DNA of 48,905 bases from assembly GCA_044359815.1 (NCBI GenBank), contig JBIKLL010000015.1, forward strand, positions 1-48,905, read 5' to 3'. Position 1 is the first letter of the stretch; each line of letters begins with the position of its first letter. The notes below the pieces were generated by a model. It ran no database searches. It saw nothing but the letters and a program-made list of their open reading frames with translations, and was not told where the DNA came from. Origin of the DNA: Pseudobdellovibrionaceae bacterium (lineage in GTDB: Bacteria > Bdellovibrionota > Bdellovibrionia > Bdellovibrionales > Bdellovibrionaceae). This document shows, in pieces, positions 520-14,863 of the stretch. A program made the position numbers and the translations under genes.

Positions 520-677
520 CTCATAACCCGAAGTTGTGCCGGCGGCAAAATGTGACTGTGACTTTGCCTGTGGCACATTTTGATGACGAGCATGGAACGA
601 AGGCAAAAGGGCTTGGCCCTTTTGCAGCAGTGACGTCGGCGGCTCGCCGACTGGTTCAAATCCTGCCCCCGCAACCA
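520..677 (+). pseudogene. 3' fragment of tRNA-fMet(CAT) interrupted by a ~119-nt structured insert (repeat copy 1)
   Basis: CTCATAACCCGAAG (520-533) and GGTTCAAATCCTGCCCCCGCAACCA (653-677) match the anticodon arm and T-arm/acceptor/CCA end of bacterial initiator tRNA. The 5' half is absent. The insert 534-652 has hairpins at 546-582, 603-625 and 635-651. Confidence 0.85.
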
Positions 678-703: not shown

Positions 704-1111
704 GTGATCGAAGCAAATAAGAAAATTAAAACTGAAAGCGGTGCTCCGTGGGAAAAGGTTGTCGGTTACTGCCGAGCTATTCGTATGGGAAATATCATCG
801 CCGTTACAGGAACAGCCTCAGTTTCAGATGATGGAAGAATCTTTGCCGTTGGCAAGCCATACGAACAAGCAAAGCGATGTCTTGAGATCATTGAAAAGGC
901 CATTCAACCACTTGGAGCAATTCGAGAGGACATTATCCGCACTCGTATCTTTGTAACTGACATTAGCAAGTGGCAAGAGTTCGGTCGGGCTCATGGCGAG
1001 TTTTTTGTGAATCATCCTCCCGCAACAAGCATGATTGAGGTTAAGTCCTTAATTGATCCCGACATGCTTATTGAGATTGAAGCCGATGCCATTATTGGTG
1101 AGAGAATCTAG
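704..1111 (+). CDS. RidA/YjgF/YER057c/UK114 family protein
   Basis: SGAPWE..VGY.RA, GRAHGEFF, PATSMIEV and LIEIEADA motifs. Confidence 0.9.
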   Translation: MIEANKKIKTESGAPWEKVVGYCRAIRMGNIIAVTGTASVSDDGRIFAVGKPYEQAKRCLEIIEKAIQPLGAIREDIIRTRIFVTDISKWQEFGRAHGEFFVNHPPATSMIEVKSLIDPDMLIEIEADAIIGERI

Positions 1112-1125
1112 CAATGGGTCACACC

Positions 1126-1366
1126 CTTCTAGCCCCTGATATACGTTGGACACATTTACTACGTCGACTAGGCGTGGTACTAAACCAAGAAAAAGGTGTT
1201 CAAAATGAAGAGTTTCACGGTTGAATTTAAAGACCAAATTGTTAAAGAGGTTCAAGAGGTCGGCAATATTAGTTTAGTTTGTCGAAAGCACAACTTAAGA
1301 ACCAGCACTGTTCATACGTGGTTTCATAAATTTTCGAGTAGATTCTCTATCGTCAACTTTCAGTGA
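1126..1366 (+). mobile_element. Truncated IS3-family remnant (OrfA HTH fragment at 1205-1366 plus probable left end)
   Basis: Hand translation of 1205-1366: [43 protein letters not shown]..., a typical transposase OrfA helix-turn-helix. Upstream GCCCC...GTTGGACAC resembles IS3-type IR ends. No DDE OrfB is present. Confidence 0.65.
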
Positions 1367-1549
1367 CATTCTCACTTCAAAATCTTGACTCCACAAAACC
1401 ATAGGGAGTTCATTGGCCTCGCCATCTATTAAATGATGTGAGCAATTCGGATTTGCAAGACTTTTATGTCTGACTCGAATGGCCTTGAGAGTCACCTCAA
1501 AGCCCGATGCCTTTCGAAAAGCTGAAGGTGCATTTACAAGTAAATTCAT
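1295..1549 (-). CDS. Hypothetical protein, possibly truncated by the IS3 remnant
   Basis: ATGA overlap with the COG0523 stop codon suggests translational coupling. The 3' end runs into the IS remnant. Confidence 0.35.
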
Positions 1550-2772
1550 AGAGAGATTTGCCGACTCTCGAGATCATTCATCAATTGCCATTTGGGAAGT
1601 GGGTCCTTTAACTTCTTCCACGCGGGAACACCCTGCAAATCTTCTTCATCCGTTAATAAGCAAGAATCCAGCAAATTTTTATCAGCCTCTTTATCTAAAT
1701 TTTGACCGATAAAAACCAACTCTTGGCCTCTATCACCGTAAACCTCATCCCAATCTTTTTTAATAATATCGAGATCTTCTTTTACGGTAGGCCAATCTTC
1801 TTGAGGCGAAGCCGCATACCAGCGCCCCACACACTCTAGTGTTACAACTTGGCCTGCCTGCGACCACAGCCCAATATAATTCGGGCGAGTAGCGATCCAA
1901 AATAAGCCCTTAACTCGTAAAAATCGCTTCCCTTCTTTTAAAAGAAAGTTCCAAAGACGTTCTGGATGAAAAGGTTTTCTCGCCCGATAAACAAAGCTGC
2001 TGACACCATATTCTTCGGTTTCAGGCCTTTCTTCACCGCGCAAAACAGCCATCCAGCCGGGTGCCTCGTGGGCTTTTTCAAAATTAAAAAGGCCCGTGTT
2101 TAAAATAGCTTGGAGCGGCACTCTCGATTGAATGGATTCAATGACCTTGGCGGTTGAATTGAGTGACGTTAAAATCGCCTTCAGGGTTTCTTTTTCTTCA
2201 GCTGTGATGAGATCAATTTTATTCAGCACAATCACATCGGCAAACTCAACCTGTTCGATTAAAAGGTCTGTGATTGTTCGCTCATCATCTTTTCCCAACT
2301 CAAGATGACGTGATTTTAGACTTTTTGACGCTTTGTAATCTTGTAAAAAATTCTTCGCATCAACAACTGTAACCATAGTGTCCAGCCGGGCAACGTCAGA
2401 AAGGCTTTTGCCACTTTCTTCAGTAAACGTGAAAGTCTCTGCCACTGGCATAGGCTCTGAGATGCCCGTCGACTCAATCAATAAGTAATCAAATCTCTTT
2501 TCTTTGGCTAAACGCGAAACCTCGGCCAGCAGATCTTCACGTAGGGTGCAGCAAATACAACCGTTACTCATCTCAACAAGTTTTTCTTCAGTTCGACTTA
2601 AAGCAGAGCCACCGTTTTTAACTAACTTTTCGTCAATATTGACTTCTGACATGTCGTTGACAATCACGGCGACTTTTAAACCTTCTCGATTGTTTAAAAC
2701 ATGATTCAAAAGTGTCGTCTTTCCAGCACCTAAAAAGCCAGAAAGTACAGTGACTGGTAATTTTTGCTTCAT
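1546..2772 (-). CDS. COG0523 (CobW/ZigA/YciC-type) zinc metallochaperone GTPase
   Basis: GFLGAGKTT Walker A, GCICC motif, IESTG, NKID and C-terminal CobW_C ([20 protein letters not shown]). Zur-regulated context. Confidence 0.95.
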
Positions 2773-2852
2773 TGACTGCTCCTCCAGGTTGAATCTTTAC
2801 ATATATGTAAAGCAATTGAGAAAAGCAGTATATATGACGAAAAGATTGCAAA

Positions 2853-2867
2853 TGCAACTAGGTTGCA
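2853..2867. promoter_or_regulatory. Putative Zur box between the divergent COG0523 gene and zinc-uptake operon
   Basis: Perfect palindrome TGCAAC-TAG-GTTGCA. The same TGCAA-N5-TTGCA core occurs upstream of the Fur-family gene (8107-8121). Confidence 0.75.
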
Positions 2868-2911
2868 CTACATGTATTCCCAGATTACATAACGAACTAT
2901 TAGAGGTATAT

Positions 2912-3535
2912 ATGAAAAATATTTTAACGATGATGTTGTCACTGACTTTGATTTATTCGTTCTCGGCTAACGCCCACGGCGACCACCCAAAGAATCTTAA
3001 TCTTGCGAAATCACCCACCATTTTAGCTGGCTTTGAAGCCGCCGCAGTGTTTGCGAAAAGCTTTAAAGAAGCTAATGGAAAGAAAATTACAAACGAATTG
3101 ATCGGAATTCATTCACAGGCTGCAAACGATGAAGTCTTGGTAGGCGTATACAATGTGCTATCGCAAAGTCAGGCCGCAAAAGACTTATACGGATGTCATT
3201 TTCACAACGATAAAAATGGTAAAATCGAGAGCACGCACTGCCACTTTGAAGAAAAAATAACTTTTGAATATTTTGCTTCGCCTAAAAGCTATTCAATCGA
3301 AGAGTATGCAATTAGCGCCAATAGCGCTATTGAACTCTTCGAATCTCGAGGCGGTAACCCTGCCACAATTGATAAAGCTAAAATTTGGAAAGCAGGCGAC
3401 GATATTCAAATTTCATTTAAATGGACTGGAGAAAACAACAATGCAAAAGTAGCCTACTTTATGTGTCACTACCACGGTAACCATATAGATTGCCATCGCC
3501 AAAGTCGACCCGGCCCCAATGAGCCACAGGATTAA
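2912..3535 (+). CDS. Secreted His/Cys-rich putative zinc-binding protein
   Basis: Start reassigned to ATG 2912 (GAGG RBS, signal peptide ending ANA-HGDH). Duplicated motif YGCHFH...HCH and FMCHYHGNHIDCH. Confidence 0.75.
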   Translation: MKNILTMMLSLTLIYSFSANAHGDHPKNLNLAKSPTILAGFEAAAVFAKSFKEANGKKITNELIGIHSQAANDEVLVGVYNVLSQSQAAKDLYGCHFHNDKNGKIESTHCHFEEKITFEYFASPKSYSIEEYAISANSAIELFESRGGNPATIDKAKIWKAGDDIQISFKWTGENNNAKVAYFMCHYHGNHIDCHRQSRPGPNEPQD

Positions 3536-3538
3536 TTT

Positions 3539-4174
3539 ATGGTTAATTGTTTGATGTTACGCGCACTTTTGACTCTTTTTTGCACTTTTGCTCTTATCGC
3601 TTGCGGTGGGGGCAGAAATCCTGACCTTGATGCCGCAAAACAAATCCCGGCTTCACAAAAAATAGGCAGTCAAAAAGCGGAAGTATTAATCGGAGAAGAC
3701 ACCCTAGTTTTTACTAACGGTACGCTTGAGGGCTCTGGCGTCGTGCGTTTTGCTTCGCCACTCGACAAGACGGAATCAGCAAACAACTTTACAATTCAGA
3801 TCGAGCTTGCCGAGAACTCTTCTGTCACGCTGGTGGCAAATTCGAATCGCAACCTAGCGGCTGGTGTAGAAATTGAGATTTCTCGGCCAGCGGGTTCGAC
3901 TTCGCCTCATGTGATCGCGCGCACAAGCCAAGATTCTCTGGATATCAGTACTAGCTTCTCTAACGTTGATGTCACAAGTGCAATGCATCTGTCCTTTGAT
4001 ATTCACAATGATCACGGAAATTCTTTGCATTTTTTGGCATGGAACGAGCAAACAGGTGAAGAGCTATTAAGCGATATCTTGAGCGGTCGCGGATTCGGCG
4101 CCAACTGGGGGCTAAAGTTACAAACAGCAAAAATAACCGGTATTGTAAAAAACGGACCCAAGGATAAACACTGA
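3539..4174 (+). CDS. Hypothetical lipoprotein in the zinc operon
   Basis: Lipobox LIAC, beta-rich body, HNDH..LH motif. TGATG overlap with the next gene. Confidence 0.75.
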   Translation: MVNCLMLRALLTLFCTFALIACGGGRNPDLDAAKQIPASQKIGSQKAEVLIGEDTLVFTNGTLEGSGVVRFASPLDKTESANNFTIQIELAENSSVTLVANSNRNLAAGVEIEISRPAGSTSPHVIARTSQDSLDISTSFSNVDVTSAMHLSFDIHNDHGNSLHFLAWNEQTGEELLSDILSGRGFGANWGLKLQTAKITGIVKNGPKDKH

Positions 4175-5247
4175 TGTTGATTTTAGTTTCTTTTCTACTT
4201 TTATCAACTACCGGCAATGCGCAATCGCTTTTACAAAATTTAAATGTTGCAGCTGCTGTTGATATTGTTGCGCCCACGTCATTTGACGAATCAGAAGACA
4301 ACAAGGTTGGCGTGCGATCAGCCGAACTTATGTTCTACGCTCCGATTGATCATATCTTTGACGGTGTTTTAAATGTTGCGGGTCATGATGATGAAGGAGA
4401 ATTTCACTTTGAGCTTCATGAAGGCTATATAGGGTCATCAAAGCTGATTCCACAATCGCGATTTCGTATCGGAAAGTTTTTCTTAAATGTAGGTAGATTA
4501 AATACATTTCATCAACATGACTGGCCATTCATTGCAGCACCCAAAGTTCACCGCGAGTTTTTTAATCCTGGTGCCCATTCTGCTATCGAAGCCGAAGGTG
4601 CGGCTGATACAGGCATCGAATATTCTTGGATTTTGCCCACGGATAGATACTTTGACATCACTGTCGGCGTCACTAACGGCTACTGCTTCGGACATTGCCA
4701 CGATGAAGGCGAGCGACCGCCCTACCCACTTCACTATATTCATCCCACGACATTTTTTGACTGGGGCACCGGCCGCGGTATACTGCTAGGCGCATCTTAT
4801 CTGGGAAGAAAAGATTCTTCGGATGTTAAAACTGATCTCTTTGGCATTGATCTCACCTATAAAAATCGCGAAGGCCGAAAGCTGAAATGGCTTGTGCAAA
4901 GCGAGGTGTATTATCAGATGCAGTCCGCCCCAGCTATGGAGACTTCAAAAAAAGCAGGTCTCTATATCTACCCCCAATACGGCATCAATGAAAACATCAG
5001 CTTTGGCGTTCGACTTGATGGTTTTTCTCATTTGAATTTGGAGTTTCAATCGAATGGCGAATCTCGCGAAGACTTTGATTATGCTTTTGCACCGACACTC
5101 ACTTATAAACCGAGTGAGTTCTCTGCGCTTCGCTTGGCTTATAGTCACGAAGTTGACACCACCCAAGGCGTAAGCGACGTCACTGATCGCCAGATTCAAA
5201 TGCAGTTTCTTTTTATTTTGGGCGCGCACCCAGCTCACGAGTTTTGA
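4174..5247 (+). CDS. Zinc-regulated outer-membrane beta-barrel/porin
   Basis: Signal peptide, amphipathic beta-strands, RLN.FHQHDWPF motif, and PSEFS..R and C-terminal LGAHPAHEF typical of outer-membrane proteins encoded beside metal ABC transporters. Confidence 0.75.
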   Translation: MLILVSFLLLSTTGNAQSLLQNLNVAAAVDIVAPTSFDESEDNKVGVRSAELMFYAPIDHIFDGVLNVAGHDDEGEFHFELHEGYIGSSKLIPQSRFRIGKFFLNVGRLNTFHQHDWPFIAAPKVHREFFNPGAHSAIEAEGAADTGIEYSWILPTDRYFDITVGVTNGYCFGHCHDEGERPPYPLHYIHPTTFFDWGTGRGILLGASYLGRKDSSDVKTDLFGIDLTYKNREGRKLKWLVQSEVYYQMQSAPAMETSKKAGLYIYPQYGINENISFGVRLDGFSHLNLEFQSNGESREDFDYAFAPTLTYKPSEFSALRLAYSHEVDTTQGVSDVTDRQIQMQFLFILGAHPAHEF

Positions 5248-5255
5248 GGTAAAAT

Positions 5256-6167
5256 ATGAGAATATTTATAAAAACACTTTTTATTATCATGGTCGCGGCC
5301 ACACCAGCTGATGCCAGTGCCCGCCTCAAGGTTATCACGACTCTTCCTGATTTAGCTGAAGCCGCGCGTGTCATCGGTGGCGACCATGCCGAAGTGGATT
5401 CACTTCTAGAAGGCACAGAGGATGCCCACTTCTTAGATGCCGTGCCAACTTTTATTCGAAAAGTGGCTAACGCTGATATCGTTTGTGTCATCGGACTTGA
5501 GCTTGAGGTTGGATGGATGCCAAAAATACTTTCAAAATCGGCCAATTCCAAAGTGCAGCCCGGCGGCATTGGCTACTGCGAAACAGGATCATTTATCAAT
5601 GCCCTTGATAAAGCGACGGGCCCTGTGGATCGTTCAATGGGTGACGTACATCCCGCCGGTAATCCGCATTTTACACTCGATCCCAAGACTCTTGCTGTAG
5701 GCGCAAGAGGCATTCTCGAAGCTCTTGTGCGCGCAAAACCAGATGCCAGTGAAACATTTCATTCAAACTACAGAAGCTTACAAGAACAAATGAGCTCACT
5801 ACACTCGGCAATTGATAACAAATTAAAACCCTTACAAAACACAAATCAACTTGCTTTTGTCGAATACCACAAAGACTTCACTTACTTTTTTAATAGTTAT
5901 AATTTAAAGTCTCTTGGTGCCATTGAAGAAAAGCCTGGTGTTCCACCTTCAGCCGCACGTCTTGCCATTTTTTCTAAAACAGCAAAAACCAACCAGGTTC
6001 GTATGGCACTTGGAGCACTCCACAGCCCAGAAAAACATCTCCGCCGCTTTTCTGAACTCAGTGGCATTCCTTTTAAAAAGCTCCCGACTATGGTTCAACC
6101 CAAAAATAAGAATCTCGACTCGATTGAAAAAGTCCAGCACTTTATCGCTGATTCAATTCTCAAATGA
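5256..6167 (+). CDS. znuA: Zn/Mn ABC transporter substrate-binding protein (ZnuA/TroA-like)
   Basis: LKVITT, DAHF, GLELE.GW, GDVHPAGNPHF, YH..F.YF and EEKPG.PP motifs. Confidence 0.88.
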   Translation: MRIFIKTLFIIMVAATPADASARLKVITTLPDLAEAARVIGGDHAEVDSLLEGTEDAHFLDAVPTFIRKVANADIVCVIGLELEVGWMPKILSKSANSKVQPGGIGYCETGSFINALDKATGPVDRSMGDVHPAGNPHFTLDPKTLAVGARGILEALVRAKPDASETFHSNYRSLQEQMSSLHSAIDNKLKPLQNTNQLAFVEYHKDFTYFFNSYNLKSLGAIEEKPGVPPSAARLAIFSKTAKTNQVRMALGALHSPEKHLRRFSELSGIPFKKLPTMVQPKNKNLDSIEKVQHFIADSILK

Positions 6168-6763
6168 ACCCAAGCCTTCAACTCAACGATGTAGCGGCTT
6201 TCACACCAGATGGGCGTCGGCTTTTTGAAGACATAAATTTTGAATTATCGCCTGGTCAAATTTTGATGATCGAAGGCGCCAATGGCTCTGGCAAAACCAC
6301 TCTGGTAAAAGTGATTTTAGGCCTTCACCCCTATTATCAGGGCATTGTTAAGAACGATTTTTCTGAGACCACCTATCTACCGCAGATTGGCAACGTGCAG
6401 TTTTTTTTACCACTCACCGTATTAGACGTGATTCAACTGCAAGCACCTCACGCAAATGAAGAATCAGTTTTAAATCTTGGTTTACTTACAGATAAAAATT
6501 CACTATCTCGGCCATGGAACACCGCCAGCGGTGGCGAAAGACAAAAGTCTCTTCTTACACGGGCCTTTTTAAGGTTTGGTCACATCCTCGTTCTCGATGA
6601 GCCGTTTAATCATCTTGATAAGGTGGCCCGGCATCAACTCGTTGATTTAATCCTGAAGAAAAAATATGAAGAGTGTGCTGTGCTTTTGATTTCTCACGAA
6701 CAAATCACTGAGTTTAAAGATTTTAAAAAAATTTCTATTCCTGCACATAGTAGCTACACATGA
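6164..6763 (+). CDS. znuC: Metal ABC transporter ATP-binding protein (ZnuC-like)
   Basis: GANGSGKTT, SGGERQK, LVLDEP and SH switch. Confidence 0.88.
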   Translation: MNPSLQLNDVAAFTPDGRRLFEDINFELSPGQILMIEGANGSGKTTLVKVILGLHPYYQGIVKNDFSETTYLPQIGNVQFFLPLTVLDVIQLQAPHANEESVLNLGLLTDKNSLSRPWNTASGGERQKSLLTRAFLRFGHILVLDEPFNHLDKVARHQLVDLILKKKYEECAVLLISHEQITEFKDFKKISIPAHSSYT

Positions 6764-7602
6764 TTTTACTTCTTGAAGCCTATAAATGGACCATTCTCGG
6801 CGGGATTTTAGGCGGCGCCGCGCTTTCGCTGATTGGCAGTCAACTGGCCAGCCGCAATCAGTCTGTCCAAACGTTGGTGGTCAGCCAAGCGGCTGCCATG
6901 GGCACCGTGATCGGGCTGGCACTGACTGTTCTTTTCAGATCACAAAAATTTCATCTCGAAGAAAGTAGCATCATACCATTGATAACAAGTTTTATCTCAG
7001 CACTCTTGTTTTACACTTTATGTGAAACTTTAATTTCCTACAAATGGCCTTCTCGCAATACCTACTATGTAGGTATTTTTGGCCTCTTGATGGCCGTTAC
7101 ATATAGCATAATATCCTTAGTACCGGGTCTAGAAACACATATGGCAGCCTCTTATTTTGGTGATCTAGCTTTAGCCAGCAATTCAGACTCTATCATCATG
7201 GCAGCAATTGGACTAATTGCAATTTTCTTCTTTAAATTTACTTGGCGACAAGTGACCGCTTGGTCGTTTGATACAGTGATTTTTGGGATTCAATCGCAAA
7301 GAAAATCTGATCGCACTTTGCAAGTTATTTTTGTTTCAGTTTCTCTTGTGACTATTGCTGCCAGTATTCAACTTTTAGGTTTTTTATTTACAGTGTCCTG
7401 CCTATTTCTACCTGCGATGATTCTGACAAGAACTCAAAAAAGACTGAGAGGGCTTAAAGCAAGGCTTGTTTCAGGTAGCGCCTTAGGTGTCGCGCTTGGA
7501 TTCATATTGTCGCTTTGGCACGGGCAGCTACCAACAGTACCCGCAATTGGAATCTGCCTGCTTTTCACTTCACTTTCGATGGGAATTCGGCGGGCACGAT
7601 AG
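6760..7602 (+). CDS. znuB: Metal ABC transporter permease (ZnuB/ABC-3-like)
   Basis: Multi-TM protein with YFGD and LPA motifs, coupled to the ATPase gene. Confidence 0.82.
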   Translation: MILLLEAYKWTILGGILGGAALSLIGSQLASRNQSVQTLVVSQAAAMGTVIGLALTVLFRSQKFHLEESSIIPLITSFISALLFYTLCETLISYKWPSRNTYYVGIFGLLMAVTYSIISLVPGLETHMAASYFGDLALASNSDSIIMAAIGLIAIFFFKFTWRQVTAWSFDTVIFGIQSQRKSDRTLQVIFVSVSLVTIAASIQLLGFLFTVSCLFLPAMILTRTQKRLRGLKARLVSGSALGVALGFILSLWHGQLPTVPAIGICLLFTSLSMGIRRAR

Positions 7603-7611
7603 TCTCAAGTT

Positions 7612-8055
7612 TCAGTACGTACATCCAGTACAAACCCCACGAAGAAAAATTGGCTGCTTTTTACCAAAGAAACGAAAGTCACCAAGTGCCGCCATAAAAT
7701 CGCGAATCCGGCTATGATCTTTTATTTCTTGATGGCGATGGCATTTTTGACAAAAAAGTAAAAGGTGGGCGTGGCTTTCACATTCGTGTGAGCAAAAAAC
7801 ATAACTGTTGGAATCGACTTCGTGTAAAACTCCAGCCTGTTTTAAATTGGCCAAATTGCGGTAAATAGAAACGCGGTCAACAACCTCAATATCTTTTGAA
7901 ATAGCTGCAATGAGGTCCGCTTGACTCAAGGCCAACTTAGCTTCTGCAAAAGCCAGCAATATACGACGACGTAATGGTGTTTTTTTTAAAGAGTGTTTTT
8001 CCAATACCTCATCGATACGCAGAAGCTCTTTTTTTCTTTGTGCTGACTGAACCAT
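7612..8055 (-). CDS. zur: Fur-family regulator, probable Zur
   Basis: T..R..IL, VSIYRNL..L...G, HAHLL..CQKC and C-terminal CTGC. Adjacent to the zinc ABC operon. Confidence 0.85.
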   Translation of the reverse strand: MVQSAQRKKELLRIDEVLEKHSLKKTPLRRRILLAFAEAKLALSQADLIAAISKDIEVVDRVSIYRNLANLKQAGVLHEVDSNSYVFCSHECESHAHLLLFCQKCHRHQEIKDHSRIRDFMAALGDFRFFGKKQPIFLRGVCTGCTY

Positions 8056-8102
8056 CCTCGTAATCTCCTAAAATCAGGCCCTATTATAAACCATGATTTC
8101 GA

Positions 8103-8125
8103 TAGATGCAATAATGTTGCATCTA
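8103..8125. promoter_or_regulatory. Putative autoregulatory Zur box
   Basis: TAGATGCAA-TAATG-TTGCATCTA, a 9-bp-arm palindrome ~50 bp upstream of the zur start. Confidence 0.75.
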
Positions 8126-8300
8126 CTCACTCAGCTTGGTATTCATAGGCTATAACGATGGCTTCGCCAGTTTTCTACACCAAATAGCGTTTTGTCTTTT
8201 AATTTCAATATGTTGGAAGGTCCACGATATATATAGGCATGGGATTGCGTTTTTCTACGCGAACTCATAGTTTAGAAAAGAACATCAGGCGCGCAACAGT

Positions 8301-8313
8301 CCCCCGCAACCAA
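8301..8313 (+). repeat. tRNA-fMet 3'-end duplication (att-like core), identical to 666-678
   Basis: CCCCCGCAACCAA occurs at both 666-678 and 8301-8313. Confidence 0.75.
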
Positions 8314-8432
8314 CTCCTAAAATAACTTATGACTTTGTTGAACTTCGGCGGCGCTTCCTTGCGACGTGGCGGTAACCACGCCTCAGTCGCTTGCCTCGTT
8401 CGCCTCGTCATAAGCTATTTTAGGAGTTGGTT
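8308..8432. mobile_element. 125-bp MITE-like element with 26-bp terminal inverted repeats
   Basis: AACCAACTCCTAAAATAACTTATGAC (8308-8333) vs GTCATAAGCTATTTTAGGAGTTGGTT (8407-8432), one mismatch. GC-rich internal hairpin GCGAC-GTGG...CCAC...GTCGC. Confidence 0.75.
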
Positions 8433-8484
8433 CTTGCTGAGGGTTGTTTTGAATCTTTGTGCTTGGGGTTTTTGTCGGAGCCCC

Positions 8485-8629
8485 GCTCATAACCCGAAGT
8501 TGTGCCGGCGGCAAAATGTGACTGTGACTTTGCCTGTGGCACATTTTGATGACGAGCATGGAACGAAGGCGAAAGGGCTTGGCCCTTTTGCCTGAGAGAC
8601 GTCGGCGAAACGCCGACTGGTTCTAATCC
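8485..8629 (+). repeat. tRNA-fMet fragment plus three-hairpin insert (copy 2)
   Basis: 8486-8570 is identical to 520-604 (85 nt). The remainder differs in loop and linker positions and ends GGTTCTAATCC, without the acceptor end. Confidence 0.92.
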
Positions 8630-8661
8630 CACAAAAAGACAGAAAAATATTTGGCTTTAGT

Positions 8662-8696
8662 AAAAAAAAAAAGGCCGCACTTTATGCGACCTTTTT
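8662..8696. terminator. Rho-independent terminator
   Basis: A-tract, GGCCGCA/TGCGACC stem and T-tract, downstream of the minus-strand gene ending at 8731. Confidence 0.65.
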
Positions 8697-8730
8697 CATC
8701 TGTTGTCGAATTTAATATGGAATTTAGTTT

Positions 8731-9648
8731 CTAATTTGCATTTACAGTACAAGCTTCAGCGGCAACGTCAAAACTTTTTTCTTGTGCCAGAAGATCGTCA
8801 ATGCACTTTGATTTCAATTTTACTCTATCTGCTCCACCTGTTAAACATGCTTGACTCGCAAGAAGTCCCAACTGTACCGCATCTTCTTCATCCACGCTTT
8901 TACGCATCTCTGGTGAATTAGTAATCTCACTAATGTATAAAATGTTTTTCGAAACACTTTTAATGCAAGCAGGTAGCTTATTCAGCTCTACTGCTATTTC
9001 ATTTGAAATTTTCTGTTTTTTAACGCTGTTACGTACTTTATAAGTTCCATTTAAGTCCAAAGCTTCAAGGACTCCAAACCTATTACTGATAAATATATTG
9101 TTAATCGAGCTGGATCCATCAGGATCACAAATCTTCTGCCTTGCAAGCCGAATAATCTCTAGATGAAACTCAAGACCACCCGACTTCGAATAAGGCAAGA
9201 CAGGATAGATTTTAGTTTTTTCTTCTGACCACACAATACCTTTTACGTTTACTTTGGCTGAAAAGGTTGTACTACCTAGTACATTCAAACAATCAACTAC
9301 CTTAGAATTATAAAATCTAGCAAAACTGCGAAGATTTTCAGAGGTACTACAAAGCACTATCGGTGAATACACTTGAATCTTGTTATGAAGTTCAGGATCC
9401 GTTTCGCGATATTGATTTAAATCAATAAATTTGTTTAAGTTTCTTGTACAAGACAAGACTTCCGTCACTCTTTCGATGTCATATGCATTTTGTGCACAGA
9501 CCAGAGCAGCAGATTCTACCGAACGACCTAGTCCATTATTATCCTTCATAGTCGAGAATTTTTGAATACATTCTGCTTTTTGTTTGGCTGATTGCGCGAA
9601 ACTCAATTGCGCAGCTAAAGTAAACCCAATTATTAAAATCAATTTCAC
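8731..9648 (-). CDS. Hypothetical secreted Cys-containing protein
   Basis: Long ORF. Likely GTG start at 9648 after an AAGGAG RBS, with a signal peptide ending SFA. Confidence 0.75.
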   Translation of the reverse strand: MKLILIIGFTLAAQLSFAQSAKQKAECIQKFSTMKDNNGLGRSVESAALVCAQNAYDIERVTEVLSCTRNLNKFIDLNQYRETDPELHNKIQVYSPIVLCSTSENLRSFARFYNSKVVDCLNVLGSTTFSAKVNVKGIVWSEEKTKIYPVLPYSKSGGLEFHLEIIRLARQKICDPDGSSSINNIFISNRFGVLEALDLNGTYKVRNSVKKQKISNEIAVELNKLPACIKSVSKNILYISEITNSPEMRKSVDEEDAVQLGLLASQACLTGGADRVKLKSKCIDDLLAQEKSFDVAAEACTVNAN

Positions 9649-9751
9649 AAAAAAACTCCTTTTTAGATTAGTGGCGAAATTTACTATGCAATCAGATGCC
9701 AGCCATATTTTAATCAATAGTTGTCTAAAAAAGATTCGAACTTTAATAAAA

Positions 9752-9775
9752 AAGGTAAGGTAAGGTAAGGTAAGG
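9752..9775. repeat. Pentanucleotide microsatellite (AAGGT)4 AAGG
   Basis: Read directly from the sequence. Confidence 0.85.
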
Positions 9776-9889
9776 CTTTTTTAATAATCCGACTAATAAA
9801 TCTGCACCCTGACTAAAAACGGCACCTAATCAACCCCTCAGTTCTGCATATTTTAACTAAATGGCAGACGAACCGTCTATCAGGGAAAC

Positions 9890-9972
9890 CCCGAAGTTGT
9901 GCCGGCGGCAAAATGTGCCAGTGGCACATTTTGATGACGAGCATGGAACGAAGGCTACAAAAAACCTGGCTC
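9890..9972 (+). repeat. 5' part of the tRNA-fragment/hairpin element (copy 3)
   Basis: CCCGAAGTTGTGCCGGCGGCAAAATGTGCCAGTGGCACATTTTGATGACGAGCATGGAACGAAGGC matches copies 1 and 2 with a shorter hairpin-1 loop, then ends at TGGCTC. Confidence 0.88.
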
Positions 9973-10023
9973 CCGCGCTAGCGATATAAGTAATCAAACA
10001 AACTACTTTGCAACTTTCCAAAT

Positions 10024-10797
10024 TTATTGTGCGACCCAACCGCCATCAACAGCCATTGAATGACCCGTGATAAACGAAGCTCCGTCTGAACATAGCCAAA
10101 GAGCGGCCTCTGCAATTTCAGCTGGTTGACCAACTCTACCGATGGGTTCACCTTCAACAAGTTGTTTTCTGATTTGAGCTTCCCCGTGAACAAATCGATC
10201 GATCATAGGTGTTTCTATAACTCCGGGACAAACTGCATTCACTCGAATATTGGACTTCGCACATTCGAGAGCCGCCGTTTTTGTCAGACCAATGACCCCG
10301 TGTTTACTTGCGACATAAGCGGGAATTCCAGGAAATCCGATCAGTCCTGCGATGGACGAACAATTGACAATAGCACCATGTCCTTGTTTTAGCATTTGGG
10401 GAATCTGGTACTTCATGCAGAGCCAAACGCCCTTCAAATTGGTATTGATAACCCGATCCCAGTTTTCCTCCGAGCAATCCACGGTAAAGGCTTGCTCGCC
10501 TTCGACGCCAGCGTTGTTGAAGGCATAGTCCAGACCTCCAAAGCGTTTGACCGTATCCTGGATTGCGGTTTTGACTTCAGCACTACTAGAAATATCGCAT
10601 TTTATAAAATGAGCTCTCCCTCCGGCTTCTTGAACCATATGGGCTGTTTGAGCGCCCGCATCAGCATTTACGTCTACAACGACTACCTGAGCTTTATTTC
10701 TTCCGAAAGCCAAAGCTGTTGCGCGACCAATACCCGTCGCAGCCCCAGTAATAAAAGCAACTTTCTGAGCAAAGTTGTACGTAGCTTGATTCTCCAT
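10024..10797 (-). CDS. Classical short-chain dehydrogenase/reductase (SDR)
   Basis: TGAATGIG, NNAG, YVASK, VNAVCPG and VDGG motifs. Confidence 0.95.
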   Translation of the reverse strand: MENQATYNFAQKVAFITGAATGIGRATALAFGRNKAQVVVVDVNADAGAQTAHMVQEAGGRAHFIKCDISSSAEVKTAIQDTVKRFGGLDYAFNNAGVEGEQAFTVDCSEENWDRVINTNLKGVWLCMKYQIPQMLKQGHGAIVNCSSIAGLIGFPGIPAYVASKHGVIGLTKTAALECAKSNIRVNAVCPGVIETPMIDRFVHGEAQIRKQLVEGEPIGRVGQPAEIAEAALWLCSDGASFITGHSMAVDGGWVAQ

Positions 10798-11056
10798 ATT
10801 TTCCTCCGTTATTGTATGACAATGAGTGGTGCAGGCACCCTTTTCATCATCGTGATAGTTTCAATTTTAGACAAAAATCCCGGTGGGCTACGATAGGCCA
10901 AGACCAGTAAGTCGTAAACAAGATATTTCTAATTAGGATATCTTAAGAAATTTTTAACCTAGTGAACCGAATAATTAAACCCATCACTTCAATTATTTTC
11001 TTTTTACAACTATTTGACAGACACTTTTTAACTTCCTAGCCTATTAATCTAAAAAA

Positions 11057-11671
11057 ATGGGAGCAATTATGAATATGTTAATTTTATTTGTGTCTGTATT
11101 TGGATATCAATTCACTTTTGCAAATGTTCAATTGCTGGCGCTAAATCCTGATTCAATAGAACAACTAGCAAGTCCACTTTCAAATGATAGTGTTTATGGA
11201 AATTTGGAGAATTTATACAAAACCGGGACATCAGCTAGCGAGCAAACTACGAGCGGATGGTGGACTGGAAGGTGCTATTATTCTGGCAGTCGATCAGTTG
11301 CTCGAAATTCACTACTTGTTGGTGAGAAAAGACGTGATTCAAACAATGACGGTCCGATTAATCCACCAAAAGATAAATTTAAATTGATTAGCGTTTTTGC
11401 TGAATACGAAGCCCCTGATGCTTTTGATAATATTTCAGAGGGATTTCGCCGTGAAATAAGTAGCTTTATAGACAGCACATTCCCCTCGATAGGCGAAGCA
11501 AGGCACACGGAAAACAGCTTTGCTAGCGACAATTTGAACGCTAAAGTTCAATACAGAATCAGAATTTCAGGGAACTACCTCGTCAACAAAGTTGTAATAA
11601 CAGAAAATCAAGATAGCTTTAAAGCTGGAGATACTTTTGGCTACTGCTATTACTTTAAAAAAGTTCAATAG
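11057..11671 (+). CDS. Hypothetical secreted protein
   Basis: 204-aa ORF with signal peptide, GWWTGRC motif and C-terminal YCYYF. Confidence 0.75.
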   Translation: MGAIMNMLILFVSVFGYQFTFANVQLLALNPDSIEQLASPLSNDSVYGNLENLYKTGTSASEQTTSGWWTGRCYYSGSRSVARNSLLVGEKRRDSNNDGPINPPKDKFKLISVFAEYEAPDAFDNISEGFRREISSFIDSTFPSIGEARHTENSFASDNLNAKVQYRIRISGNYLVNKVVITENQDSFKAGDTFGYCYYFKKVQ

Positions 11672-11746
11672 GCTTGCAGTGATTTTTTAAATTAAAAATA
11701 ACCGCTTTGATTTAAACAAAACAGACTTCATAATAAGGGGGAAAAA

Positions 11747-12025
11747 ATGAAATTCTTAATAGCAGTGCTATTGCTTTTAAATACGGTATCCGCATTTGGT
11801 ACTAACTGCAGAGTATTTGATAATAATCCACAAAGTTGTATTGCAAATGATTGCTTGATTGCAACAATCGGAAAATGCACCCCCACAGCAAACAGCTCTT
11901 ATCCTGACAGATGCAATGATACAAAGTATGATGAGTTCACTTGTCGACATTATGCTGACTTTGGCTGGTGCAAATGGTCTGTGGAAGAGAGCTATTGTCT
12001 AGACAGAAAGATCTGCAAACAGTAA
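11747..12025 (+). CDS. Small secreted Cys-rich protein
   Basis: AAGGGGG RBS, signal peptide MKFLIAVLLLLNTVSAFG and 9 Cys in the mature part. Confidence 0.75.
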   Translation: MKFLIAVLLLLNTVSAFGTNCRVFDNNPQSCIANDCLIATIGKCTPTANSSYPDRCNDTKYDEFTCRHYADFGWCKWSVEESYCLDRKICKQ

Positions 12026-12029
12026 TAAA

Positions 12030-12053
12030 TGGCTCGCCGACTGGTTCGAATCC
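12030..12053 (+). repeat. 3' part of the tRNA-fragment/hairpin element (copy 4)
   Basis: TGGCTCGCCGACTGGTTCGAATCC matches 641-663 of copy 1 (hairpin-3 loop and right arm plus tRNA T-loop). Confidence 0.8.
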
Positions 12054-12089
12054 ACTTGAACTCTTTAATTGGTAAGTTAACATTTTATC

Positions 12090-13169
12090 ATGAAATTTTG
12101 CCTGATTCTTTTAATAGTATTTGTCAGTTCTTGCGCTACTCATAAAGTCCAAAATTCTGTGATTGATTGCCGGTTGCAATACGCCAATGAAGACGTGCTA
12201 GAACAATTGGATTCTTTTTCGGAATTATTTCAGCAAAAATGTTTTAATGAAGCAATTCAATTGGGAAAGCAAATTCGCAAAAACTACCGGGATAAATATT
12301 TTTCGGTCACAAAAGAAATCGGTGAAGTTTTCGTGGGGGAAGGCGCTTTCAATGACTATACCCTTGAATCCTATGAAAGATCCTATTTGTCGTACCTGAT
12401 GGCCATTGGATATTTGAATTTAGGTGAAATTGAAAATGCGAAAATTGAGCTCAGAAAATCAGCCGAAGAAAATTCTGCAGTGCTTTACAATTATGGGGAT
12501 GACCCTGTAATCCTGGTTTTACAGGCAACTCTTTGGGAAAAATTAAATCATCCTGCCGAAGCCAGGCCTTTTTGGCGAAAAGCTTTTGAACATCCAAACG
12601 CTGAGCCTTCTTTAAAAAGCTTTTGTAAAACCCAGATTGACCGTATCGATAGGAAAGAAAAAGTGAACTGGAAAATCCGGGGTGTTTCTGACTTTCCACC
12701 GATCGATTGGGAAATCTCAGGCAAAAAAATGAACGAATCCTATTACAGCATTTATGCAAAAAATGAATTTCCCCAAGTTTGTAAAAGCAATGACAGTTTA
12801 GTCATCAACACAGAAACTTGGATGAACAAAATTAAAATCCGACATTTTTATGACTACCACCCTGTTTTAAATGTGAAAACTTGGACTCGAATGCCTGTGG
12901 GTTTGGCTTATGGTGCAGGATTATTTGCCAGCGGTGTGGCTGTAACTGTGGGCACTTGTTTTGCGGCGGCCTATGCACATGCCAGTAACCTGTGCCAATA
13001 TTCCCACAAAGCCGGTAGCTATTTTGTAAATAAATCTGAAGAAGTCTTTCAATACACCGTAGCCCCTGATCTAAGACACTGGAAGCGAGTGCCCGCAGGG
13101 TTTTACCTATCAAGCCAAGCAAACTCTAAAGAATGTGACAAATACGGTGTTGTGACCGATATTTTTTGA
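12090..13169 (+). CDS. Lipoprotein with helical TPR-like region (COG3014-like)
   Basis: Lipobox VSSC and Y..ESYE...L.Y..A..YL..G..E.A.IE.R pattern. Confidence 0.65.
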   Translation: MKFCLILLIVFVSSCATHKVQNSVIDCRLQYANEDVLEQLDSFSELFQQKCFNEAIQLGKQIRKNYRDKYFSVTKEIGEVFVGEGAFNDYTLESYERSYLSYLMAIGYLNLGEIENAKIELRKSAEENSAVLYNYGDDPVILVLQATLWEKLNHPAEARPFWRKAFEHPNAEPSLKSFCKTQIDRIDRKEKVNWKIRGVSDFPPIDWEISGKKMNESYYSIYAKNEFPQVCKSNDSLVINTETWMNKIKIRHFYDYHPVLNVKTWTRMPVGLAYGAGLFASGVAVTVGTCFAAAYAHASNLCQYSHKAGSYFVNKSEEVFQYTVAPDLRHWKRVPAGFYLSSQANSKECDKYGVVTDIF

Positions 13170-13280
13170 TTTACAGAAGACCATTTTAATACCCTGATCC
13201 GAAATGAAAATCTCATTTATGCGTGAAAAACAAAAATAACAGACCTTAAACAGATCAAGGTATTTATAAAAATCAAGAAC

Positions 13281-13694
13281 CTATTTTTTATTGCTTACAC
13301 ATTTGTAATTTACATTCGCGCCAATCAAACCAGTACTGGCTGCTTTAAACAAAACCGTTGCTGTCTTTAGGTCTGCATTTACCAGAATGATTGCATCTTC
13401 ATTCGCACAGGAAACTGGGTAGAATTTTGCGTTACCAATCCTGGCTACATCGCCTAATGCGCATTCAAATTTATTGTCTAAACCTTCAATGGAAACATTG
13501 GCGACCATGGTGCCATCGTCATTAATATTTTCAGATTTTCTGTCAGTGCTAAACTGAATCAAAAATACCGGCATCACACCGTCACCTGGTTGCGCCAAAA
13601 CATTTGCAGAACATTTAAGGTCAGCCTTTACCACTGTCGCTGCCTGGGCTACTGAAAAACCGATCAAACCAAAAATCACTAATAATGCTTTCAT
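13281..13694 (-). CDS. Hypothetical secreted protein
   Basis: GGAGG RBS, signal peptide ending AQA and 4 Cys. Confidence 0.8.
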   Translation of the reverse strand: MKALLVIFGLIGFSVAQAATVVKADLKCSANVLAQPGDGVMPVFLIQFSTDRKSENINDDGTMVANVSIEGLDNKFECALGDVARIGNAKFYPVSCANEDAIILVNADLKTATVLFKAASTGLIGANVNYKCVSNKK

Positions 13695-13900
13695 AGAAAC
13701 CTCCGCTACAGCCTTGTACTATAGAAAACGATTTTCGCAAGAACCCGCGTTGACACTTATGCTTAGTAAGCGTCAATACGGATTTGAATTGCAAAGGCCA
13801 TAGTCAGCTCCTGTCCTTGACAGATTATTTAATAAAATATTCAGGCTGGTGACACCTACGCTTATTGTTTTTATTCAAAACAGGTTCATTAATCACAGCA

Positions 13901-14863
13901 CTAGTGATCTTTGTCAGAAAAATACTTTTTCATTTCAGGTATGGACTTTAAAAATACGGGTGGCTGAATGGCATTGAATTCTGGCAACGGCTGCCCTTTT
14001 GACAGAGCTTCCTTACAGAGTCCTTCCCATTTCATGTGCCACCGGTAAAGACAAGCCATATACATTTGCTCTAAATAGATACTAAAACTCCAAGCAAAGC
14101 CTGTATAGATAATCACACCCACCCATACCTCTGGAGGGAACTCAATAAGGGGTGGTTTGCCATCGTGTTTTGTCCCAAACAGGATACATAGAAAAACCGG
14201 TAAAAAAACCCACCCACTAGCAACCCAAGTTAAAACATAGCCAAAGGTAAATTGTTTCAATCGAGCTTTGAAAATAGCGATTCCCCTCTTCAGGGCATCT
14301 TTTGTTCCATACCCTTCCCAAGCAATCGCTGGGATCACCAAAAAAACGGCCATGCGAATTCCCTTTTGAAGGGCGTCAATTAAAACTCTGGAAAAAGAAA
14401 ACTTCTCGTACCCAGCTAGAGTTTCAGCAACCGCCTGAACAGAACGCTCATGGTCCTCTTGAGTCTCTTCACTTTTTAAGAGGGCATTGATAACTGATAA
14501 AATAAACCACAAAAATGCCCAAACTAGGGCTATGGGCAAAATCTTATAAAAACTTTCGACCAAAACTCTTTTAAATGTATCAAATAATCTAATTTCTTTT
14601 CCCTCATCGATGTCTTGAAGCATTTCAAGCAGCCACGCGCACGAAAAGCACAACGAAACTGAAAACATCACAGTCAAACCAAAGACCACTAATATGTTTT
14701 GCAGTTCTGGGTGCTGCTTCCAAAGGTAAAAAAACTTTAGATAGATCACACTGGGAGCATAGATCAACCAAGCCAAAAGCATTGGTAAAATCAAAACAGG
14801 TTTCCTTACAAAAATGGAAAACGAATTTCCAATCAATTCAAAACTATCGCTGACATCCCTCAT
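13901..14863 (-). CDS. Integral membrane protein of unknown function
   Basis: About 6 hydrophobic segments and a GGAGG RBS. Confidence 0.8.
   Translation of the reverse strand: MRDVSDSFELIGNSFSIFVRKPVLILPMLLAWLIYAPSVIYLKFFYLWKQHPELQNILVVFGLTVMFSVSLCFSCAWLLEMLQDIDEGKEIRLFDTFKRVLVESFYKILPIALVWAFLWFILSVINALLKSEETQEDHERSVQAVAETLAGYEKFSFSRVLIDALQKGIRMAVFLVIPAIAWEGYGTKDALKRGIAIFKARLKQFTFGYVLTWVASGWVFLPVFLCILFGTKHDGKPPLIEFPPEVWVGVIIYTGFAWSFSIYLEQMYMACLYRWHMKWEGLCKEALSKGQPLPEFNAIQPPVFLKSIPEMKKYFSDKDH

Follow-up and report, generated by a model that had tools for sequence, protein, structure and literature searches.

The 119-nt stretch at positions 534-652 of the window, that is, of the whole 48,905-nt contig (C58) under analysis, is one copy of a small ORF-less module of three hairpins, which we term S2, and this copy is embedded in a displaced 3' fragment of a tRNA-fMet gene. 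S2, the fMet-type module, belongs to a larger set that also includes a sister type, S1, common in the source genome (G000; 2.95 Mb in 125 contigs, 91% complete, 41% G+C). In G000 and in many Bdellovibrionales these modules have an intact tRNA or tmRNA gene on one side and a duplicated end of that gene on the other, and they vary in presence, in partner tRNA and in orientation. Altogether, S2 and S1 are probably DNA-level mobile or recombination modules tied to the duplication of tRNA-gene ends; each module would then be either a mobile element of miniature size or the part of a small integrating cassette that serves as its recombination site.

Copies of the S2 module in the source genome

The module in the window is framed by exact pieces of the tRNA-fMet of G000 itself, CTCATAACCCGAAG on the left and GGTTCAAATCCTGCCCCCGCAACCA on the right, and the DNA upstream of position 520 bears no resemblance to a tRNA. 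Further full or partial copies lie downstream in the window, and a search of the whole assembly revealed a fourth copy on contig C30. The features are as follows.

520-533, + strand: left tRNA-fMet piece of copy 1 (anticodon loop, 3' strand of the anticodon stem and start of the variable loop), with CTCATAACCCGAAG identical to the tRNA-fMet on C30
534-652, + strand: S2 module, copy 1 (model R2, 81.9 bits on 522-608)
546-554/574-582, + strand: hairpin 1 (H1) of copy 1, arms CAAAATGTG/CACATTTTG
603-612/616-625, + strand: hairpin 2 (H2) of copy 1, arms GCAAAAGGGC/GCCCTTTTGC
635-641/645-651, + strand: hairpin 3 (H3) of copy 1, arms GTCGGCG/CGCCGAC
653-677, + strand: direct duplicate of the last 25 nt of tRNA-fMet (3' part of the T arm, 3' strand of the acceptor stem and CCA), the single exact match in the window
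704-8055, no strand assigned: cargo between copies 1 and 2, a zinc-uptake island (Pfam scan and ORF list)
8296-8432, + strand: 12-nt remnant of the tRNA-fMet 3' end (8301-8312), then a long inverted-repeat module, also found directly after the tRNA-fMet on C30
8486-8629, + strand: copy 2, with left tRNA piece (8486-8499), module (8500-8618) and degenerate T-loop remnant (8619-8629)
9890-9955, + strand: copy 3, 5' half of the module only (module part 9897-9955), with left piece, short-loop H1 and linker up to GAACGAAGGC
12031-12053, + strand: 23-nt remnant of the module 3' end (H3 loop and 3' arm, start of the T loop), a 96% match to 641-663
C30:4933-5081 of G000, - strand: fourth copy, 89% alike

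Copy 2 (8486-8629) shares 94% identity with copy 1 (520-663) and has the same R2 score of 81.9 bits, and copy 3 scores 86.2 bits on 9885-9959; by R2, S2 has four copies in G000. The stretch 653-677 is identical to its counterpart at the C30 copy, on which the length of the exact 25-nt duplicate was measured.

The three stems described in the sequence-only reading are borne out by direct reading of the sequence, and so is the pattern of variation that it reported. Among the three full copies (copy 1, copy 2 and the C30 copy) nine columns are substituted, and only one of them falls within the 52 stem positions of the 119, a bias that is weak by itself (binomial P = 0.045). This sole stem substitution is the A-to-G change previously noted in H2 (605 A>G), which leaves a G-T pair. 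The H3 loop indeed reads GCT in copy 1 and AAA in copy 2, and the C30 copy adds GCA as a third version. The 12-nt length difference sits in the H1 loop, which is short in copy 3, as had been stated, and likewise in the C30 copy, and long in copies 1 and 2. RNA folding of 513-677 gave z = -1.81 for the plus strand, with 10 of 200 shuffles equally good, and z = -3.45 for the minus strand, with none of 200 equally good. As the plus-strand fold alone is near chance, support for the structure rests on comparison, and conservation of the fold judged from the G000 copies alone is only suggestive.

A tRNA fragment rather than a tRNA gene

None of the four copies has a tRNA 5' half; each is a fragment of the 3' part of the tRNA. 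The left flank of every copy is limited to the anticodon loop and the 3' strand of the anticodon stem, and the right flank corresponds to the stretch from the T loop to CCA; the sequence 5' of each copy differs between copies and lacks the 5' strands of the acceptor, D and anticodon stems. At copy 1 the 5' strand of the T stem is replaced, so that at most three of the five T-stem pairs can form. ARAGORN finds no tRNA gene in the window, and the Rfam tRNA model has no match there. An intact initiator-type tRNA-Met(CAT) with a normal variable loop is located on C30, a different contig from that of the window copies. The order on C30 is intact tRNA-fMet, long inverted-repeat module, S2 copy (about 190 nt downstream of the gene) and exact 25-nt duplicate of the tRNA 3' end, which lies 331 nt downstream of the intact tRNA-fMet.

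According to the sequence-only reading, the insert might belong to a tRNA-like RNA whose variable arm is giant, or might be an intervening sequence that can be excised, and the flanks are indeed exact pieces of tRNA-fMet in the correct order. However, the missing 5' half and the replaced 5' strand of the T stem rule out both a giant-variable-arm tRNA and an intron in a live gene, an intact tRNA-fMet is present elsewhere in G000, and a module of identical type occurs beside other tRNAs, also on the opposite strand. The suggested check for a full-length tRNA-Met that carries the insert came out negative, in that no module lies inside an intact tRNA gene among the genomes inspected. That the stretch gives rise to a functional tRNA-like molecule, with a giant variable arm or with an intervening sequence that is removed, is therefore extremely improbable. 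The proposed reuse of the tRNA's GTCG as the left arm of H3 is probably a coincidence, because GTCGGC..GCCGAC or CTCGGC..GCCGAG belongs to the module itself in the relative G186 and in the tRNA-Pro copy of the relative G213.

Conservation of the S2 fold across Bdellovibrionales

Among named genomes, an exact-pattern scan returned a single relative, a Bdellovibrionota MAG. Of 384 genomes of the order, 18 were matched in a pattern search, with true S2 modules in eight (G000, G024, G186, G200, G212, G213 with a truncated copy, G215 with two copies, and G253) and the remaining matches in coding DNA. A MAFFT alignment of nine S2 copies from seven genomes contains 35 invariant columns, and its consensus runs from CATAACCCGAAG through TTGTGCCCGCG and a hairpin 1 with a GCC-AGT-GGC tip to TGCGGAGCATG.

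Hairpin 1, with 12 pairs, is paired in 93.5% of the alignment cells, compared to 79.8% in shuffles and 40-50% in slid controls. Double changes occur in 13 cells, compared to 3.8 in shuffles, a value reached by none of 500 shuffles, in an alignment that was not fitted to structure and with counts that ignore phylogeny. The H1 loop is AGT in seven of the nine copies. Hairpins 2 and 3 are unalignable across families and recur as hairpins of different sequence: the G186 copy retains GAACGAAG and GTCGGC-GAA-GCCGAC, and the tRNA-Pro copy of G213 has an A/T-rich H2 followed by CTCGGC-GCAA-GCCGAG and the T loop. The earlier claim that selection acts on the fold thus gains support from both the covariation of H1 across seven genomes and the recurrence of H2 and H3 with other sequences in relatives.

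Model R2 (E <= 1e-3) detected S2 in 42 of 151 sampled genomes of the order, belonging to 10 of 13 families, with one to five copies each. The module lies downstream of a tRNA on the same strand in seven genomes, with tRNA-fMet in G000, G200, G253, G212 and G024 and tRNA-Pro in G194 and G213, and downstream on the opposite strand in seven others, with tRNA-Met in G085, G104 and G122, Leu in G008, Arg in G115, Ala in G185 and Asn in G230. In the opposite-strand cases the TTGTGCC left end of the module abuts the reverse complement of the last 15-25 nt of the tRNA, so that on the tRNA strand a direct duplicate again follows the module. In G190, S2 is located upstream of tRNA-Gly, after a direct copy of the first 25 nt of that tRNA. 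Such freedom of tRNA partner and orientation fits inserted DNA and is hard to square with a transcript shared with the tRNA. A comparison with Rfam, which the sequence-only reading had recommended, assigned the module to no family: Rfam 15 has no match in the window at gathering score, and at E <= 1 only tRNA and tmRNA pass the cut-offs at eight module-bearing loci.

Duplicated tRNA ends in the source genome

Nine of the 34 tRNA/tmRNA genes of G000 have an exact duplicate of their 3' end, of at least 12 nt, within 1.5 kb downstream, the nearest being 162-331 nt away. The exact repeats measure 15-25 nt, and that of tRNA-Ala reaches 63 nt including its terminator. When up to three mismatches in 15 nt are allowed, five more genes join (tRNA-Leu(gag), Val(tac), Cys, Glu and tmRNA), giving 14 of 34; the duplicate of tRNA-Leu(tag), a gene located at the end of a contig, was found on C75. 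In the complete genome of a member of the same family (G042), none of 33 tRNAs has a duplicate.

The units share one layout, in which the tRNA is followed by a terminator or long inverted repeat, the three-hairpin module and the duplicate of the tRNA 3' end. The arms of the terminator or inverted repeat include the last bases of the tRNA, and the first base of the duplicate mostly lies 2-3 nt into the T loop. In many units the module is preceded by a degenerate reverse complement of the tRNA 3' end; this arm reaches z >= 3.6 at nine genes, namely eight unit-bearing genes and the tRNA-Asn on C4, which may lack a unit, and is insignificant at the fMet locus of G000 (z = 0.1). A copy of the T-stem 5' strand followed by TTCRA also stands before the module, with the exact 8-nt version directly before hairpin 1 in five cases. 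All units of G000 are co-oriented with their tRNA. Hairpin-rich sequence precedes all 14 of the proximal duplicates inspected in G000; covariance model R1 places an S1 module ahead of 10 of the 14, and R1 or R2 confirms a module at 11, with a weak score at C76 and none at C25 and C107. Elsewhere in G000, second duplicates with truncated module ends lie about 0.9 kb farther out.

Three units, those of Ala on C76 and Leu(tag) on C75 and an orphan on C29, form an intermediate "type 2"; as in S2, their hairpin 1 begins with GGC-AAAAT, and they have the GAACGAA linker. Model R1 does not detect the fMet (S2) copies and gives E = 0.003 for the type 2 unit of C76. The presumed kinship of S2 and S1 rests only on layout, position and these intermediate units. 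At C99:71510-71678 of G000 two tandem S1 modules follow a terminator with no tRNA within reach, which suggests that modules can multiply locally.

Fold and distribution of the sister module S1

From a MAFFT alignment of 11 S1 units, RNAalifold derived a hairpin 1 of 10 pairs, three of which show three pair types each. Model R1 recovers 13 S1 copies in G000 (E <= 2.5e-14). Within the family it detects S1 in 47 of 151 genomes (E <= 1e-5), a single genome containing as many as 18 copies, and in one genus 27 of the 32 genomes carry the module. Among 30 S1 loci inspected, nine have an adjoining tRNA or tmRNA (Glu, Ser, Arg, Pro, Lys-Glu and tmRNA) and 21 have none, and in these 21 the core lies within larger nested palindromes. 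In genus g9, represented by many complete genomes, S1 is scattered in intergenic DNA apart from tRNAs, and in a comparison of loci across g9, with one genome per species, the flanking gene alone aligns.

Over 82 S1 copies, 95.1% of the cells are paired, compared to 78.8% in shuffles and 35-53% in slid controls, and 196 cells carry double changes, compared to 45 in shuffles; this alignment (A3) was fitted to the model and carries no phylogeny correction, and as the sequences are related, the figures are not probabilities. Only 85 of 1522 cells are other than Watson-Crick, with G-T in 10 and A-C in 7. As G-T is as rare as A-C, there is no wobble excess or strand bias, and the palindromes are clean on both strands. 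Loop sequences are conserved in a strand-specific manner, here as in S2, which would be expected if a protein reads the hairpin: the H1 loop of S1 is AGGAT in 37 of the 82 copies, AGGAA in 10 and ATGAT in 9, and the H3 loop is AGGA in 48 of the 82 and AGGAT in 11. The AGGA(T) of these loops stands within CAGGATG or CAGGAG, and we take such motifs (CAGGAUG-, CAGGAG-like) to resemble CsrA-binding sites; a csrA gene is located at C116:45828-45986 of G000.

In viral contigs, a degenerate S1 motif gave at least 120 matches, and the upstream hairpin signature appears in none among the matches listed. A loose hairpin descriptor run across G000 returned 499 matches and proved too noisy.

Cargo and surroundings of the modules

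In the window, units of module plus duplicate bracket cargo genes in a row. The zinc-uptake island between copies 1 and 2 encodes a RidA-like protein, an IS3-type transposase fragment, a CobW GTPase, a porin-like protein, ZnuA, an ABC ATPase, an ABC-3 permease and a Fur-family regulator, in addition to two ORFs without an assigned name; more ORFs lie between copy 2, copy 3 and the remnant at 12031-12053. NCBIfam assigned no name to the seven cargo ORFs submitted to it. The transposase fragment within the island, a 44-aa IS3-type HTH (PF01527) at 1199-1330, points to earlier activity of an IS element in the cargo.

The long inverted-repeat module measures about 150 nt and consists of a conserved core hairpin, GCGACGTGG..CCACGCCTCAGTCGC, with variable, self-complementary arms. 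It is present at 8307-8432 of the window, on C30, C33, C84, C95, C107 and C75 of G000, and at the loci L027-L035. In G000 it directly follows the CCA ends of tRNAs, the last bases of which are included in its arms, and in seven other genomes of the family it is intergenic, after protein genes. In several genomes, small ORFs that resemble toxin-antitoxin genes directly follow units or inverted-repeat modules, namely at C122:26800-27150 (minus strand) and, after the first duplicate, on C21 of G000, and at L027 and L029; the ORF that starts the stretch after the first tRNA-Arg(tcg) duplicate in G000 is presumably a look-alike of a BrnT-type toxin. Other repeats in the window are a near-perfect palindrome of about 80 nt with 35-nt arms (140-225), which precedes copy 1 and has no sequence relation to the modules, a short GGTAA/TAAGG microsatellite (9754-9775) between a 328-aa ORF and copy 3, and four tandem 33-nt repeats (21615-21746, 70-100% alike), probably within a coding region.

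In four lake-water metagenome DNA runs the contigs stop at the module, and directly past the duplicate, at positions 682/685, there are at least six different continuations. These varied continuations may represent strains, relatives or the other copies of G000 itself. In the contigs of the four runs no island-deleting joint, excision junction or empty site was seen.

Search for a recombinase

No recombinase linked to the modules was found in G000 (91% complete). Phage_integrase (PF00589) has two matches in the genome, at C96:31633-32079 and C26:7200-7664 in frames of 312 and 324 aa, both on other contigs, and no integrase lies beside any unit. A Pfam scan of 19 ORFs at 704-14863 of the window revealed no recombinase except the 44-aa IS3-type HTH fragment. 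The idea of an IS110 bridge RNA was dropped, as G000 has no match to a DEDD transposase, and those of a casposon, a retroelement or a serine recombinase likewise, as there is no match to Cas1, RVT_1 or Resolvase in G000. The module shows no terminal inverted repeats by eye, and no target duplication of fixed length accompanies it (15-25 nt, in one case 63 nt).

G000 also encodes nine Y1_Tnp (Y1 HUH) genes, of which eight are paralogues of about 206 aa with 86-92% identity (C23:201-818, C48:48177-48794, C56:2996-3607, C47:11964-12581, C49:93331-93948, C100:636-1253, C125:2387-2998 and C8:23382-23993). These paralogues share a conserved upstream region of about 90 nt, each preceded by a different tandem-repeat array of 5-8 nt, and their flanks contain no conserved downstream end and no module. 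The protein family is multi-copy in many genomes of the taxonomic family (94 of 182). It is not proposed as the mobiliser of S1, because four S1-rich genomes (G105, G091, G119 and G130) have no match to the G000 Y1 query.

Alternative explanations

An unlikely alternative, which nonetheless deserves weight, is that the module encodes a structured non-coding RNA, made with the tRNA or from a promoter of its own, as a protein-binding sRNA or a 3'-trailer element whose tRNA-like ends would serve processing or stability. It is consistent with the covariation of S2 hairpin 1, with unpaired linkers and loops that are conserved across at least four families and with the shared orientation of units and tRNAs in G000; a promoter-like site lies at 462-489 before copy 1, a kind of site no more frequent than in shuffles. 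However, S2 is on the strand opposite the tRNA in 7 of 15 inspected loci with a neighbouring tRNA, its distribution is patchy with a variable copy number, Rfam offers no match at either cut-off, and G-U is no commoner than A-C (10 vs 7 of 1522), which is unusual for selection at the RNA level. The resemblance of S1 loops to CsrA sites, in a genome with csrA, speaks for an RNA, whereas the S2 loops (TGA/AGT, TTG and GCT/AAA/GCA) contain no GGA, and the identity of S2 as a CsrA-binding sRNA was rejected on this ground. Far less probable still is a small protein encoded on the minus strand, to which we give next to no credence: one minus-strand frame is stop-free through the three full copies and the 12-nt indel keeps it in frame, but the homologues are set apart by indels of lengths not divisible by three, and 5 of 12 S2 copies examined (G024, G186, G200, G215a and G194) have a stop in all six frames within 150 nt.

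The units might instead be inert scars, that is, decayed attR-type tRNA fragments left by integrase-borne islands and combined by chance with unrelated palindromic repeats, so that the module would be functionless. Integration of elements is known to yield partial tRNA genes, according to PMC9897764, in which the word "hairpin" does not occur. The truncated distal copies, and the cargo with its IS3 fragment between the copies, would also suit a scar. Chance association is hard to reconcile, however, with hairpin-rich sequence before every one of the 14 proximal duplicates in G000 (11 of them with a module confirmed by the models), with a module order and linkers that are conserved across families of the order, and with stems kept by compensatory changes. 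We therefore regard a functionless scar as improbable.

Proposed mechanism and significance

Returning to a DNA-level mobile or recombination module, we propose that insertion at the end of a tRNA gene would be accompanied by duplication of 15-25 nt of the tRNA end, by which the tRNA gene would stay intact. More speculatively, the hairpins might act as folded single-stranded DNA that is recognised by a recombinase or transposase, with the tRNA-derived flanks supplying the match to the target. Such a role is suggested by compensation that is almost purely Watson-Crick in S1, by the conserved hairpin loops and by the reverse-complement copy of the tRNA 3' half that precedes the module in relatives. 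By virtue of this copy, a strand that folds back on itself would recreate the target as a duplex, the module forming the tip. Integration of this kind should yield the order tRNA, cargo, reverse arm, tip and duplicate, which matches the units observed. The putative ssDNA recognition structure of the sequence-only reading comes close to the interpretation preferred here.

Two observations count against folded single-stranded DNA, namely the weak reverse arm at the fMet locus of G000 and the failure of the searches to reveal an enzyme. Moreover, the single-stranded linkers (TGCGGAGCATG in S2) and loops that are conserved across families would also fit an RNA and to this extent weigh against a DNA-level module in general. 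A bolder version, which we consider rather doubtful, takes the modules as working parts of an undescribed integrase-poor system. Small ssDNA or hairpin elements would home to tRNA/tmRNA ends by tRNA-specific flanks, duplicate the gene ends so that the tRNA survives and build integron-like rows of cargo at tRNA genes throughout Bdellovibrionales, in the window the zinc-uptake island and other genes, and a conserved protein, of the host or other, would read the AGGA or AGT loops.

A conserved, covarying hairpin module is built into partial tRNA copies at about 40% of the tRNA/tmRNA genes of G000. About one in four of the genomes sampled from the order contains it, with no integrase next to it. 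An active insertion site would point to a mode of tRNA-end targeting that is undescribed in the sources searched, and to a platform on which predatory bacteria collect cargo; an RNA would constitute a widespread family that lacks annotation. Under either reading, the module explains why pseudo-tRNA hits of this class, and assembly breaks, turn up in these genomes. A full-text literature search, in which Bdellovibrio is hardly covered, found no description of the module.

Comparison with known systems

Genomic islands classically insert at tRNA genes, and a partial tRNA copy is usually taken for a passive scar of an integrase. Sublocation classes of integration within tRNA genes were reportedly set out by Williams in 2002, and the anticodon loop and the T loop are the classical places of crossover. 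The units described here resemble the attL/attR fragments of integrated elements in the exact tRNA 3' duplicate beside an intact gene, in the start of the left piece within the anticodon loop (S2) or the T loop (other units), in the tandem rows of units with cargo in between and in the use of tmRNA genes. They differ in that no integrase lies beside any unit, most units are gene-free and only 160-330 nt long, the tRNA fragment is split by a conserved three-hairpin module, and this module can face either way and in one case stands 5' of the tRNA.

Like REP/BIME and MITE-like palindromic repeats and the ends of IS200/IS605-type elements, which are read as ssDNA hairpins, the modules are short, ORF-less and multi-copy (four S2 and 13 S1 in G000) and form nested perfect palindromes with conserved loops, and the S1 copies of genus g9 are scattered intergenically. 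By eye, however, no terminal inverted repeats were seen in them, nor was a fixed short target found; their link to duplicated tRNA ends is tight, and the S1-rich genomes gave no match to the Y1 query from G000.

The attC sites of integrons and attP(+) of CTXphi are recombination sites that work as folded single strands, and attC carries R''/L''...L'/R' boxes, with GTTRRRY at the crossover, for the IntI integrase. The S2 ends (TTGTGCC... and ...CGCCGACT) have no R/L boxes, and no IntI-type gene was identified in G000, where two tyrosine recombinases are present. The targets here are tRNA genes in place of attI or dif, and at the fMet locus of G000 the arm that would fold is degenerate. Despite these differences, the modules and the two kinds of folded site are alike in a structure that is conserved more than the sequence and in units that separate cargo in a row, and the reverse-complement tRNA 3' half found in relatives would similarly let a folded strand rebuild the duplex target.
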